Positions 26,697 through 32,000 of a stretch of DNA of 32,000 bases are shown here, piece by piece. Source of the stretch: Candidatus Saccharimonadota bacterium. Its GTDB lineage: Bacteria > Patescibacteriota > Gracilibacteria > UBA1369 > 2-02-FULL-48-14. Every line of letters starts with the position of its first letter. The stretch's first letter is position 1. The notes under the pieces were generated by a model. That model had not been told where the DNA came from. It worked only from the letters and a program-made list of their open reading frames with translations, and made no database searches. Location of the stretch: assembly GCA_965230905.1 (NCBI GenBank), contig OZ246396.1, positions 1,050,001 through 1,082,000 on the forward strand, written 5' to 3'. Position numbers and translations under genes: made by a program.

Positions 26697-26724
26697 TTGA
26701 CTTTGCTTTGCTAAAGGCTAAAAT
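26697..26724 (+). promoter_or_regulatory. Promoter candidate for the 16S rRNA gene
   Basis: TTGACT (26697-26702), 16-nt spacer, TAAAAT (26719-26724), ~190 nt upstream of mature 16S. Followed by a hairpin (gcaca...tgtgc) and a weak boxA-like 'cgttcttcaat' at ~26766. Confidence 0.45.
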
Positions 26725-26916
26725 CGTTTGGCACATTTCCTTATCGATCTGTGCACGTTCTTCAATCGACCTTTGACAGTTCAGATCTAATAGAGAGTCC
26801 CAAATTCTAGGTTTTAATCTCGGTTTTCCGAGTATAAATAAATCAAAATTTAAGGCTACTTCCTGGCCAACAGGAAGAACAGCTTCAAACAACTCATAAG
26901 TTTACTTCGGTAAACT

Positions 26917-28373
26917 TTCTTGGAGAGTTTGATCCTGGCTCAGGGTGAACGTTGGCGGTGCGTCTAATACATGCAAGTCGAGCGAGGCTTCGAGCCGAGC
27001 GGCAGACGGCTGAGTAACACGTTGGTAGCTACCTCAAACTCAGGGATAACTATGAGAAATCATAGCTAATACCGGATGGTCCCGTAAGGGTAAAGTTTTT
27101 ACGGTTTGAGAGGTGCCTGCGTCCTATCAGGTAGTTGGTGAGGTAACGGCTCACCAAGCCTATGACGGGTAACTGGTCTGAGAGGATGACCAGTCAGAGG
27201 GAAACTGAGACACGGTTCCCACTTCTACGGAAGGCAGCAGTAAAGAATCTTCCACAATGGACGAAAGTCTGATGGAGCGACACCGCGTGCAGGATGAAGG
27301 CCCTTGGGTCGTAAACTGCTTTTTTGGGGGAAAAATTCTGATTGTACCCTAAGAATAAGCACCGGCAAATCACGTGCCAGCAGCCGCGGTAATACGTGAG
27401 GTGCAAACGTTACCCGGAATTATTGGGCGTAAAGCGTCCGCAGGTGGCGTAGTAAGTTGGATGTTAAATCTTGAGGCTCAACTTCAAGTCTGTATTCAAA
27501 ACTACTATGCTAGAGATTAGGAGAGGTGAGTGGAATTCTGCATGTAGGGGTAAAATCCGTAGATATGCAGAGGAACACCAAAAGCGAAGGCAGCTCACTG
27601 GCCTATATCTGACACTCATGGACGAAAGCGTAGGTAGCAAACGGGATTAGATACCCCGGTAGTCTACGCTGTAAACGATGATCACTCGATGTCGGGAGTT
27701 CGACCCTCTCGGTGTCTAAGCAAACGCGATAAGTGATCCGCCTGAGAAGTACGATCGCAAGATTAAAACTCAAAGGAATAGACGGGGACCCACACAAGCG
27801 GTGGAGCGTGTGGTTTAATTCGATAGTAAGCGAGGAACCTTACCAGGGTTTGACATCTCGGGAATTTTCTGGAAACAGAGAAGTGCCGTAAGGAACCCGA
27901 TGACAGGTGCTGCATGGTTGTCGTCAGCTCGTGCCTTGAGGTGTTCGGTTAAGTCCGTAAACGAGCGCAACCCACGTCCTTAGTTGTATTTTTCTAAGGA
28001 GACTGCCTTGCATAACAAGGAGGAAGGTGTGGATGACGTCAAATCAGCATGGCCCTTATACTCTGGGCGACACACGCGCTACAATGGCCGGTACAACGGG
28101 CAGCCAAGGAGTGATCCGGAGCGAATCCCTAAAACCGGTCCAAGTTCGGATTGAAGGCTGCAACTCGCCTTCATGAAGCTGGAATCGCTAGTAAATGTGT
28201 ATCAGCCACGGCGCATTGAATATGTTCCTGGGTCTTGTACTCACCGCCCGTCAAGTCATGAAAGTTAGGGGTGCCCGAAGTTCCCACTCAGTGGGGCCTA
28301 AGGCAAAACTAATGATTGGGACTAAGTCGTAACAAGGTATCCGTACGAGAACGTGCGGATGGACTACCTCCTA
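26917..28373 (+). rRNA. rrs: 16S ribosomal RNA (complete, ~1.46 kb)
   Basis: 'agagtttgatcctggctcag' at 26924, 'gtgccagcagccgcggtaatac', 'ggattagataccccggtagtc' (differs from the usual ...ccctggtagtc), 'aagtcgtaacaaggta', and a 3' end '...ggactacctcct' containing the anti-SD CCUCC. End coordinates are +/- a few nt. Confidence 0.95.
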
Positions 28374-28563
28374 TTAAGGAGTTACGAAGGGTTGCGAAAG
28401 CAACCGTGTAACCATTCCTAGGTCGCTTCTGCCTTTATCTTCGGATAATGTTGCAGAATCGAGTGTATCGCGAGATACGTTCACCCTAGAGTTTGCCTCT
28501 CTTTTAGATCTGGATTGTCAGCACTGCAAACGCAAGTTTGTAGCCTGCGACTGAAGAAACAAT

Positions 28564-28590
28564 AAGCCCCTGAAAAGGGGCTTTTATTGT
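28564..28590 (+). terminator. Rho-independent terminator ~190 nt after the 16S 3' end
   Basis: Stem 'aagcccc' / 'ggggctt' (7 bp, 4 consecutive GC pairs), loop 'tgaaaa', followed by 'ttattg'. Confidence 0.6.
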
Positions 28591-28621
28591 ATTTATCTAA
28601 GGTTCTTTTAAAATGTGTGAT

Positions 28622-28649
28622 TTGACTGATAGCGGAAAAACATTATAAT
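28622..28649 (+). promoter_or_regulatory. Near-consensus sigma-70-type promoter inside the 16S-23S spacer
   Basis: TTGACT (28622-28627), 16-nt spacer, TATAAT (28644-28649). Confidence 0.55.
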
Positions 28650-28671
28650 ATGCACAACTTAATCAAGTTAT

Positions 28672-28836
28672 ATGGGTTTGGAGCAGGAGGTGTTTGAAGA
28701 TGCAGCGGTGGAAGCTAGCGAAAATCGCATATCTAATGAGAGGAAGTGTGTTCGTGGGCCCGCTTGGTATGATGAACTTTTTGGTGAGTTAGATCCTGTT
28801 GCCGATGACGACGAGGTGGGGCTGAAAGAGAAATAG
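28672..28836 (+). CDS. Candidate small acidic protein (54 aa), below the ORF-track cutoff
   Basis: Hand translation: MGLEQEVFEDAAVEASENRISNERKCVRGPAWYDELFGELDPVADDDEVGLKEK*. Starts ~23 nt after the -10 box at 28644. No SD, and no homology can be judged here. Confidence 0.3.
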   Translation: MGLEQEVFEDAAVEASENRISNERKCVRGPAWYDELFGELDPVADDDEVGLKEK

Positions 28837-29613: not shown

Positions 29614-29667
29614 TGGGCTTGACAGGATTAAGTATTGACGTTAAACTCACAAACCTTAACATTTGTT

Positions 29668-30054
29668 ATGAATCGTCTTACTACTGCTGCACCTTTACTA
29701 TTAGTAACGGCTTGCCAAGTGGGGCCTGATGCAAGAGAAATTGCTCGTGAAGAAACTTTAGGAGTGGTTTCGCATATCACAAGAGAATGTGGTGTTGGCA
29801 TAAAGGATGCATCAAATGTATCTACGCTTGCGCCAGATGCTACTGGTCTTGAGGCGGTTTCTCGATACACGTTAGATGCAGCGACTAAGGAAGACGAAGA
29901 ATGTGTTGAGTCAGCAGTAAAGACTTATAACGGATCAGCCACCTTGGATGGTGGTTGTGAGGTAGGGTATTCTTACCCTAAGGGCTGGACTGAAGTAGAT
30001 GGTGGAATGAGGATGAAGGTTAGTGTTGAATGTCTTCCTCATTATCTCAAGTAA
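29668..30054 (+). CDS. Small lipoprotein (128 aa) with four additional Cys
   Basis: ATG at 29668 gives 'MNRLTTAAPLLLVTAC' (signal plus lipobox). TTGACA (29618-29623)-17-TAAACT (29641-29646) is a possible promoter. The tracked start at 29635 is a TTG. Confidence 0.55.
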   Translation: MNRLTTAAPLLLVTACQVGPDAREIAREETLGVVSHITRECGVGIKDASNVSTLAPDATGLEAVSRYTLDAATKEDEECVESAVKTYNGSATLDGGCEVGYSYPKGWTEVDGGMRMKVSVECLPHYLK

Positions 30055-30086
30055 ATTACTAGTAAAATAGGTTCTAAAAATTCCTA

Positions 30087-30115
30087 TTGACTTCACTCTG
30101 TCGGCTTCCTATAAT
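30087..30115 (+). promoter_or_regulatory. Near-consensus sigma-70-type promoter ~360 nt upstream of 23S
   Basis: TTGACT (30087-30092), 17-nt spacer, TATAAT (30110-30115). Confidence 0.6.
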
Positions 30116-30279
30116 GCCCCAGCTTAATTAGTTAAGCGCTGTCCTTTTTCCTCCTCATGAACCTGTTCCAAATACCCTAGAGTTTCAAACGACTATTGGT
30201 CCTTACGGACTGTTTGAGCTTCTAGGGTGTATGGAGACATACACCCTTTTTGTAACCGGGTTTCCCGGTGTACAGAGTC

Positions 30280-30293
30280 TGTTCCTTGAAATT
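30280..30293 (+). promoter_or_regulatory. boxA-like antitermination element in the 23S leader, preceded by boxB-like hairpins
   Basis: 'tgttccttgaaatt' resembles rrn boxA (E. coli TGCTCTTTAACAA; a Gram-positive variant, recalled from memory as TGTTCTTTGAAAA, is closer). Upstream hairpins are gggtgtatg-gaga-catacaccc (30225-30246) and accggg-ttt-cccggt (30255-30269). Confidence 0.4.
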
Positions 30294-30476
30294 TCGGGTT
30301 TGAATACTGAATAACACAACTGATTCAGTACTCAATAAATGAACAAAATAACTTTGTAGTCAGAAACTTTCCTGCTTCTGAACTACAATAAAATTCTTTT
30401 TTATACATAATCGTGGTAGTAAGCGATTTGTATTATTCTTTCTGATTGCCATAAAAAAGCACGGAAGATGACGTTA

Positions 30477-32000
30477 AATCATTGAAAAAAATGCAAAGAA
30501 TGGATGCCTTGACTCAAAACTCCGATGAAGGACGCGGCCAGCTGCGATAAGCTTCGGCGAGCTGCTAAGCAAGCTTTGACCCGAAGATCTCCGAATGGGG
30601 AAACCTTATAGAAGTAATGTTCTATAGCCTCGAAAGAGGCGGAAACTAGGGGAATTGAAACATCTTAGTACCCTGGATAAAAGAAATCACATAGAGATTC
30701 CCGTAGTAGCGGCGAGCGAACCGGGAACAGCCCAAACCGTATCCTTCGGGATGCGGGGTTGTAGGACCTCAATACGAAACTATTTTCTATTAGCCAAACG
30801 ATCCTGGAAAGGACGGCCATAGTGGGTGATAGCCCCGTCGGCGAAAATAGATATAGTTTCCAGAGTGCTCCTGAGTAGGGTCGGACACGAGAAATCCGGC
30901 CTGAATCTGGGAAGACCACTTTCCAAGGCTAAATAAGTTTTGAGATCGATAGTGAACAAGTACCATGAGGGAAAGGTGAAAAGCACCCCAGGAAGGGGAG
31001 TGAAATAGATCCTGAAATTCTTTGCTTGAAATAAGTCGGAGCCCTTCGGGGTGACGGCCTACCTTTTGTAGAATGGGCCAACGAGTTAGCTGTATGGTGC
31101 AAGCCTAAGGGAGTTTAAACCCGGAGGCGTAGCGAAAGCGAGTCTTAACCGGCGCCAAGTACCATGCACTAGACCCGAAACCGGGTGAGCTACCCATGGG
31201 CAGGTTGAAAATAGGGTAAAACCTATTGGAGGACCGAACCAACTTGTATTGCAAGACAAGTGGATGACCTGTGGGTAGGAGAGAAATTCTAATCGAACTC
31301 GGAGATAGCTGGTTCTCTTCGAAATAGCTTTCGGGCTAGCCTCGTATTATAAAGCAGTTGGGGGTAGAGCTCTGTTTAGGCTAGGGGGCAAAATATGTCT
31401 ACCAAACTTATACAAACTTCAAATACCAATTGTGTGATACGGGAGTCAGACGGTGACAGCTAAGTGCCATCGTCGAGAGGGTAACAGCCCAGACCGTCAT
31501 TTAAGGTCCCTAATAGATGTTCAGTGGTAAAGGATGTGAGGATGCGTATACAACCAGGAGGTTGGCTTAGAAGCAGCCATTCCTTTAAAGAGTGCGTAAC
31601 AGCTCACTGGTCTATGCGTCCTTGCGCCGAAAATATAACGGGGCTCAAACATCTAACCGAAGATACGGATATAATTTATTATATGGTAGAAGAGCGTTCT
31701 CATCGGCTGTGAAGCAAGATTGTAAAGTCTTGTGGAGCGTTGAGAAGTGCAAATGTTGGCATAAGTAACGTCATTTACGTGAAAAACGTAAACACCGAAT
31801 GTCCAAGGTTTCCCAAGCCACGTTAATCGACTTGGGGTTAGTCGGTCCTAAGGCCCAGGCGAAAGCCATAAGCTGATGGATGACAGGTTAATATTCCTGT
31901 ACATTTTGAAAATCGCCCAAGCAAATCTGGAAAGCGATATTATTCCAATCAAAATCCTTCGGGATTGCGAAAGGACTAATTTCAATTGAAAGAGGCGCTA
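30477..32000 (+). rRNA. rrl: 23S ribosomal RNA, 5' ~1.5 kb (continues beyond the window)
   Basis: 'tggatgccttg', 'gatgaaggacg', 'ctgcgataagc', 'tccgaatggggaaacc', 'gtaccatgagggaaaggtgaaaag', 'agacccgaaaccgggtgagctac', 'ggttaatattcctgtac' occur in the same order and at about the same spacing as in E. coli 23S. The start is placed by alignment to the E. coli 5' end, +/- ~10 nt. Confidence 0.95.

Follow-up and report, generated by a model that had tools for sequence, protein, structure and literature searches.

The 32,000-nucleotide (nt) stretch of contig OZ246396.1 analyzed here (hereafter, the window) contains the single ribosomal RNA (rRNA) locus of a groundwater bacterium, a Peribacteria-like member of Candidatus Peregrinibacteria in the Candidate Phyla Radiation (CPR, or Patescibacteria). 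In this locus the 16S gene and the 23S-5S pair are most likely separate transcription units, judging from promoter, leader and terminator-like elements that recur among relatives. We regard as likely the whole model proposed below, in which an ancestral rRNA operon came apart to give adjacent, separately promoted units. The split layout, as traced through the related sequences, is common to the whole lineage.

Layout of the locus and its relatives

The 16S rRNA gene occupies positions 26917-28374 of the plus strand (Rfam RF00177, 1481 bits, full length), and the 23S rRNA gene begins on the same strand at 30477 (Rfam RF02541); its 5' 1524 nt (30477-32000) lie inside the window, and the gene then runs off the window end. 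These Rfam coordinates leave 2102 bp between the 16S 3' end and the 23S 5' end, in agreement with the distance of about 2.1 kb given in an earlier reading of the sequence alone (hereafter, the original prediction). Beyond the window, locus L001 carries the full 23S gene at 11095-14060 and the 5S gene at 14167-14282. Spacer motifs were located by a consensus scan of the window, tRNA genes by ARAGORN and Rfam, and small protein genes from a list of open reading frames (ORFs). In the spacer and the 16S leader, Rfam searched permissively returned the tRNAs only and no other known RNA.

Related loci were collected with an alignment of fam0, a membrane protein of 76 amino acids (aa) encoded in the spacer (29383-29613, plus strand), which was scanned against one genome per species. 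The scan gave 27 loci, nearly all from Candidatus Peregrinibacteria or Peribacteria; rRNA genes, tRNA genes and ORFs were mapped in these and in metagenome loci, and 30 loci from Peregrinibacteria show the conserved arrangement. The fam0 gene is found upstream of 23S in ~30 loci, in essentially all of them on the 23S strand and at a distance of 0.3-1.5 kb from 23S-5S. The 16S gene, if present on the contig, precedes 23S by 1.0 to >6.6 kb; several other loci show no 16S within >8 kb. The order and strand of 16S and 23S are kept, and the gene content of the spacer differs among lineages: serine hydrolase, SLH surface proteins, a ParE toxin-antitoxin pair, an MFS transporter, a PAS/GAF sensor and a MacB/HlyD ABC exporter, mutually unrelated, all occur there. 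The comparison with related genomes that accompanied the original prediction as a check therefore has a mixed outcome: the arrangement, promoter, terminator-like hairpin, leader and fam0 are kept, and the other spacer genes vary by lineage.

In the window the tRNA genes of the spacer run counter to the rRNA genes, as both do in the other Peribacteria-like loci. In distant lineages they are co-oriented with the rRNA genes, in the order Ile-Ala in L024, L028, L030 and L033 and Ala-Ile in L031. The L031 spacer, 1039 bp long and fully co-oriented, still has a near-consensus promoter before 23S. In L036 the rRNA and tRNA genes are co-oriented, and fam0 is antisense to all the rest. L013 has an additional tRNA-Ala(CGC) between tRNA-Ile and tRNA-Ala, and the space between the two tRNAs holds a 155-aa ORF in L015 and two large genes (~4.3 kb) in L032.

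rRNA genes are hard to assemble from metagenomes, and the layout could in principle be an artefact in which unrelated DNA was joined between 16S and 23S. Two observations would fit such an origin, namely that one of the four contigs carrying the same DNA (L002, 1.3 Mb) breaks within 16S and that many homologues of the spacer gene sit on very short contigs. Against it, an identical 76-aa fam0 protein is encoded in four separate assemblies, each from a different sample of Hainich groundwater, and all four match the window collinearly over the whole spacer at 99.6-100% identity. One of their contigs, 236 kb long, covers ClpP, 16S, the spacer, 23S, 5S and type IV pilus-like genes, bridging the spacer with unique flanks on both sides, and the same order recurs in 30 related loci from other studies and habitats. 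Because the four independent assemblies and the relatives agree, misassembly, which the original prediction had asked to be checked, is excluded; the artefact, to which we give next to no credence, is already refuted for practical purposes, and the layout is real. L002 itself (ERZ1292638) has its position 1 inside 16S, at model position 231. It is about as large as reported complete Peribacteria genomes, an otherwise near-complete assembly that breaks at the single rRNA locus.

Promoters, leaders and a candidate terminator

A candidate promoter of the 23S-5S unit lies at 30087-30115 on the plus strand (TTGACT-17-TATAAT, 11/12 consensus positions), preceded by an A-rich tract and followed, after the -10 hexamer, by the GC-rich segment GCCCCAGC. 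Its hexamers fall within the 16-18 nt spacing of sigma-70-type promoters and stand upstream of an rRNA leader, as would be expected of an rRNA promoter. All 30 related loci have the element, as TTGAC[T/A/G], a 17-nt (rarely 16-nt) spacer and TATAAT (10-12/12), and it is placed 211-362 nt upstream of 23S and downstream of the last protein gene. Across 657 kb of these loci, both strands counted, there are 54 promoter matches of at least 11/12, and 27 of these fall in the 170-nt zone before 23S, compared with 0.007 expected per locus.

An alignment of 15 leaders (A4) gives the elements between this promoter and 23S in a constant order: A-rich tract, promoter, GC-rich segment, small hairpin, long hairpin, second hairpin with T-run, an invariant boxA-like block and the 5' arm of the 23S processing helix. 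In the window the small hairpin is at 30122-30137, the long hairpin at ~30167-30235 and the second hairpin with its T-run at 30224-30247, all on the plus strand. Compensatory changes are seen in 9 of the 26 pairs of the leader hairpins. The element GGGTGTATGG (30224-30233) is both the 3' arm of the long hairpin and the 5' arm of the hairpin with T-run, so the two structures are mutually exclusive; the three strands involved co-vary in L017, L018 and L021 (ACTCC / GGAGTG / CACTC). Segment 30167-30247 looks like an attenuator-type switch, set just ahead of the boxA-like block.

That block, TGTTCCTTGAAATTTCGG (30280-30297, plus strand), has an invariant core, CCTTGA.A, in the 15 aligned loci and is conserved as TGTTCCTTGAAA[A/T]TTCGG. 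We take it to be boxA-like from its likeness to consensus sequences known generally, TGCTCTTTAACAA in E. coli and TGTTCTTTGAAAA for the B. subtilis-like form. The 5' arm of the 23S processing helix (30433-30480, plus strand), a strongly conserved block in A4, pairs with the 23S-5S spacer beyond the window; the duplex has z ~ -8 in L001, L005, L007, L017 and L021. The promoter at 30087, the hairpins and the boxA-like element had all been noted in the original prediction, and all of them recur in the 30 related loci.

The 16S leader follows the same plan. Its candidate promoter, TTGACT-16-TAAAAT with an A-rich tract upstream (26697-26724, plus strand, 10/12), is kept 140-230 nt upstream of 16S in 9 of 10 loci and shows up as a conserved block in alignment A5, and the two promoters share the upstream half AAAAT.CTATTGACTTCA. 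The boxA-like block of this leader, GACCTTTGACAGTT (26768-26781, plus strand), runs into the 5' arm of the 16S processing helix, and distant relatives have TGTTCCTTAACAATT at the same position. The helix itself, foreseen as closing before the spacer genes, does so: its 5' arm (26772-26799) and 3' arm (28495-28522), both on the plus strand, form 28 pairs, 12 of which show compensatory double changes over 8 lineages. The 16S trailer (28375-28521) is 70-80% conserved with L009, L011, L012 and L013.

Beyond the helix stands the GC hairpin AAGCCCCTGAAAAGGGGCTT (28564-28590), which has T-runs on, and scores on, both strands and is the proposed intrinsic terminator of the 16S unit. Noted in the original prediction as a GC hairpin with T-tract, it has an 8-bp stem with five GC pairs and a T-rich tail, as predicted for an intrinsic (Rho-independent) terminator. 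An equivalent plus-strand hairpin with T-run occurs within ~265 nt after 16S in 16 of the 16 loci that include the 16S 3' end; among random 350-nt segments of these loci the rate is 27%. In most loci it is directly behind the processing helix, and the hairpin sequences vary between lineages. We propose that the hairpin at 28564-28590 would also keep minus-strand transcription out of 16S.

The minus strand carries tRNA-Ile(GAU) at 29067-29143 and tRNA-Ala(UGC) at 29204-29280, each found by both ARAGORN and Rfam. A strict promoter scan of the gap between tRNA-Ala and fam0 found nothing; alignment of this gap (A3) then showed a minus-strand promoter with a -10 element ending in G (29314-29343), which comprises a -35 TTGATT (29343-29338), an 18-nt spacer and an extended -10 TGaTATAAG (29322-29314) that ends 33 nt before the tRNA-Ala 5' end. 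These -35 and -10 elements are the sole conserved blocks of the gap across 14 loci. Between the two tRNA genes, on the plus strand, there is a further hairpin with T-run (GTTTCCTTGCGGAAAC, then ACTTTTTTTA; 29156-29171), which would halt plus-strand transcripts running antisense through tRNA-Ile.

One operon or several units

The original prediction of separate 16S and 23S units, with non-ribosomal genes in the gap, is supported by the terminator-like hairpin in 16/16 loci, the promoter and leader in 30/30 and the tRNA promoter. In the model we favor, the promoter at 26697 would drive 16S, which would be excised via the leader/trailer helix, and transcription would stop at 28564-28590. On the minus strand, the extended -10 promoter at 29343-29314 would drive tRNA-Ala and then tRNA-Ile. 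The third unit would consist of the genes for fam0 and for a 128-aa protein, with no terminator after them, and then of the strong rRNA-type promoter at 30087 driving 23S-5S, with a leader carrying the hairpins, the boxA-like block and the 23S processing arm. Since 23S would have a promoter of its own, genes would be free to come and go in the stretch from the 16S terminator to the tRNAs, which would explain why this segment differs in each lineage. From sequence conservation we infer active promoters, termination at the hairpin and parallel regulation of the units.

The last of these units has a particular boundary. Be it fam0 or a member of unrelated families, the last co-oriented protein gene stops short of the -35 element of the 23S promoter by 7-152 nt (median 17 nt) in 29 of 29 loci, and in the same 29 loci no terminator-like hairpin was found between the two (30054-30087 in the window). 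Transcripts of the protein genes therefore probably continue into the 23S leader, and the units are probably not fully insulated.

Several points weigh against the model. The promoter consensus used is that of sigma-70 in model organisms and may not be that of CPR bacteria. The terminator criterion is a simple one, and more than a quarter of random segments match it. In E. coli, rRNA transcription complexes assembled on boxA resist termination through Nus-factor antitermination, mainly against Rho; given this resistance and the boxA-like block of the 16S leader, some read-through of the 28564 hairpin is possible. No promoter of fam0's own was identified by scan and alignment of the tRNA-Ala/fam0 gap. 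The original prediction gave the tRNA pair both a promoter and a terminator, and only the former held: behind tRNA-Ile, the minus strand of the window shows no clear terminator (fold z = -1.5). Finally, a terminator after 5S is seen in only 3 of 16 loci.

Taken further, the antitermination argument would make the operon functionally single: boxA-modified polymerase from 26697 would read through the hairpin and the spacer, antisense to the tRNAs, into 23S, and the promoter at 30087 would be only supplementary. The boxA-like block of the 16S leader suits this reading, as do the distant loci L028, L030, L031 and L033, where tRNAs and spacer genes all run in the direction of the rRNA genes, and the lack of a terminator between the spacer genes and the 23S promoter. 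It has to contend with the hairpin and T-run after 16S, which are kept in 16 of 16 lineages while their sequence changes, a pattern indicative of selection for termination. Such a polymerase, moreover, in the window's clade would collide head-on with transcription of the tRNAs from their conserved minus-strand promoter, and the 23S promoter, with its complete leader, is nearer to consensus (11-12/12) than the 16S promoter (10/12), unexpected for a minor auxiliary promoter. We judge a functionally single operon unlikely; the conserved terminator-like and promoter elements argue against one 16S-23S-5S primary transcript.

The layout might instead stem from a recent insertion or inversion in a canonical operon, private to this lineage, in which the promoter-like and terminator-like sites arose by chance and no functional reorganization took place. 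The strain-specific segment 28604-29066 and the fast turnover of spacer content are what such an event would leave, but the promoter, terminator-like hairpin, leader and fam0 are shared with lineages whose 23S is only 74-82% identical to that of the window, and by chance the promoter is expected 0.007 times per locus; we consider this explanation very improbable. Returning to the model of adjacent, separately promoted units, one could extend it by supposing that the position of fam0 is functional. The gene and the one that follows it would share a transcript with the 23S-5S precursor, a mixed mRNA-rRNA unit, and the mutually exclusive leader hairpins would serve as an attenuator tuning 23S-5S to 16S output, since a common transcript no longer yields both. 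This extension strikes us as rather improbable.

Unlinked rRNA genes with genes in the spacer are already on record for CPR bacteria and Borrelia; the locus is one more case from CPR and overturns nothing in that picture. In complete genomes 98.7% of 16S-23S pairs are linked, that is, separated by at most 1500 bp, with a mean spacer of 419 bp (bioRxiv 10.1101/705046), and the window, at 2102 bp, exceeds the 1500 bp above which a pair counts as unlinked (Brewer et al., bioRxiv 10.1101/705046 / ISME J 2020). The canonical rrn operon, with a spacer averaging ~420 bp and at most co-oriented tRNAs, has no place for a spacer of this length with opposite tRNAs and two conserved protein genes. CPR/Patescibacteria are among the clades rich in unlinked rRNA genes (bioRxiv 10.1101/705046), and 27 of 34 circularised CPR genomes are unlinked in the survey of Lui et al. 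(2021, PMC8172020), whose categories include spacer protein genes and intervening opposite-strand genes. The window falls in their type D, unlinked by distance, with >2000 bp and intervening opposite-strand genes (tRNA-Ile and tRNA-Ala). The original description of the arrangement as unusual is thus apt for bacteria overall but not for CPR.

With the surveyed CPR genomes the locus shares distance, spacer protein genes, a small genome and a single rRNA set. Both surveys classify by distance and strand only, and neither names Peregrinibacteria; a Peribacteria genome paper reports single-copy rRNA genes and does not describe their arrangement. What sets the present loci apart is that 16S and 23S stay neighbors (1 to >6.6 kb, in the same order and on the same strand) and that promoter, terminator-like and leader elements, together with a lineage-wide protein gene beside the 23S promoter, are identified by comparison. 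Four features seem not to have been described before: a second full rRNA leader module conserved throughout the lineage, a candidate terminator behind 16S, a gene for a small membrane protein fixed in place right beside the 23S promoter, and the mutually exclusive, co-varying hairpins of the 23S leader.

The E. coli rrn leader combines an UP element, a GC-rich discriminator, boxB-boxA-boxC and RNase III stems. A leader of the rrnB type resembles those found here in its A-rich tract, near-consensus hexamers, GC-rich segment after the -10, hairpin, boxA-like element and helix arm. The E. coli 16S-23S spacer has a second boxA and, by common understanding, no strong promoter; in the present locus, by comparison, the whole leader module is present twice. 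Among other bacteria, Borrelia burgdorferi sensu lato has 16S apart from 23S-5S, with tRNA-Ala after 16S and an opposite tRNA-Ile before 23S-5S (PMC4370689, PMC6582327). Locally that layout is very similar, but its 23S-5S pair is tandemly duplicated, only one tRNA is inverted, the spacer genes are unrelated and the phylum is another. Protein genes occupy the roughly 3-kb 16S-23S gap of Borrelia. Separate 16S and 23S-5S promoters, with a processing helix flanking each rRNA, are also known from Helicobacter pylori, Thermus thermophilus, Rickettsia, Wolbachia and Buchnera (PMC6582327). In those genomes the units lie tens to hundreds of kb apart, whereas here they are neighbors in the ancestral order.

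The locus offers a sequence-level picture of an rRNA operon coming apart, with a doubled leader module, a candidate 16S terminator and a spacer subject to gene turnover, and it makes a test case for how 16S and 23S could be balanced without co-transcription in cells with one rRNA set. There is also a practical warning in it: typing by 16S-internal transcribed spacer-23S amplicons or long reads will miss or mis-size Peregrinibacteria.

Spacer genes and neighboring features

The original prediction placed two plus-strand genes with membrane and lipoprotein signatures before the 23S promoter, and both are real genes to judge by their homologues, coding-type substitutions, helices, cysteines and lipobox. 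The fam0 protein has 56 homologous clusters (51-88% identity), and a profile search extends it to 283 small-protein representatives. Differences at its three codon positions come to 0.39/0.23/0.63, and the ORF keeps a stable length of 76-89 aa. The motif IKDFTGDIGFAExYLGxGGTWTF is conserved, and the structural model (pLDDT 88) consists of two long hydrophobic helices around an invariant loop. Searches with fam0 gave no Pfam match at or above threshold, a best PDB profile E-value of 0.59 and a best Foldseek E-value of 6; SecG-like and other small two-helix families were considered as candidates, with no tool result in their support. A distant homologue, P0213, is not near rRNA genes (one example only), so the linkage of fam0 to 23S appears clade-specific. 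In L024, L028, L029, L030 and L033 a gene for a 393-aa MFS transporter directly precedes fam0 with overlapping stop and start codons, which suggests an operon and possibly a functional tie of fam0 to the transporter.

The second gene (29668-30054, plus strand) encodes the 128-aa protein, cysteine-rich and putatively exported, with a lipobox-like LLLVTAC; an alternative start at 29635 in the ORF list would give 139 aa. Its N-terminus, MNRLTTAAPLLLVTAC, contains the lipobox VTAC, in agreement with the pattern [LVI][ASTVI][GAS]C, followed by a conserved domain, which marks it as a predicted lipoprotein, and the window has an Lgt gene at 22448-23239. The six homologues (52-100% identity) share a conserved domain with four invariant cysteines in an otherwise fast-evolving protein, and relatives are anchored by a lipobox or, some of them, by an N-terminal membrane helix. 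A promoter-like site, TTGACA-17-TAAACT (29619-29647, plus strand, 10/12), has its -10 end 21 nt before the start codon, which fits the spacing of protein-gene promoters in the clade (21-32 nt), and TTGACA-16-TAT[AT]AT stands at the equivalent position in L009, L011, L013, L022 and L026. The structural model (pLDDT 73) has weak fold matches only; a PilO-like fold, the best of them (E = 1e-3, TM 0.36), is too weak to use. Type IV pilus or type II secretion-like genes do lie in L001 straight after 5S (14391-19601), among them an MshEN/T2SSE ATPase, a T2SSF platform gene and an N-methyl pilin-like gene.

Upstream of the tRNAs, segment 28604-29066 is strain-specific and has no counterpart in relatives, which hold other genes there, such as the ParE pair in L009. 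The promoter-like site predicted in it, TTGACT-16-TATAAT (28622-28649, plus strand), is present and, at 11/12, is one of only two matches of at least 11/12 in the 32-kb window; it was not found conserved in the related loci. Its -10 ends 23 nt before the start of a 54-aa acidic ORF (28672-28836, plus strand), again the clade-typical spacing. Also predicted was a second, convergent mini-ORF, a very hydrophobic one of 26 aa, MKKLFIAFVIAVVFGGGWAFLYLIFG (28853-28933, minus strand). Both ORFs exist in the ORF list, the 54-aa one also being gene-called in contigs of the same strain, and the gene status of each is uncertain. The 54-aa ORF has no Pfam match and neither has a homologue in any related locus, so we rejected them as conserved genes; the 54-aa ORF is a possible strain-specific orphan, given the near-consensus promoter at gene-typical spacing. 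The stops of the two are 16 nt apart, a layout reminiscent of a type I toxin-antitoxin pair.

Over the window as a whole (1-32000), GC skew is positive in nearly all 1-kb bins and cumulative skew climbs steadily throughout. The G-rich strand carries the rRNA genes, which fits a location on the leading strand.

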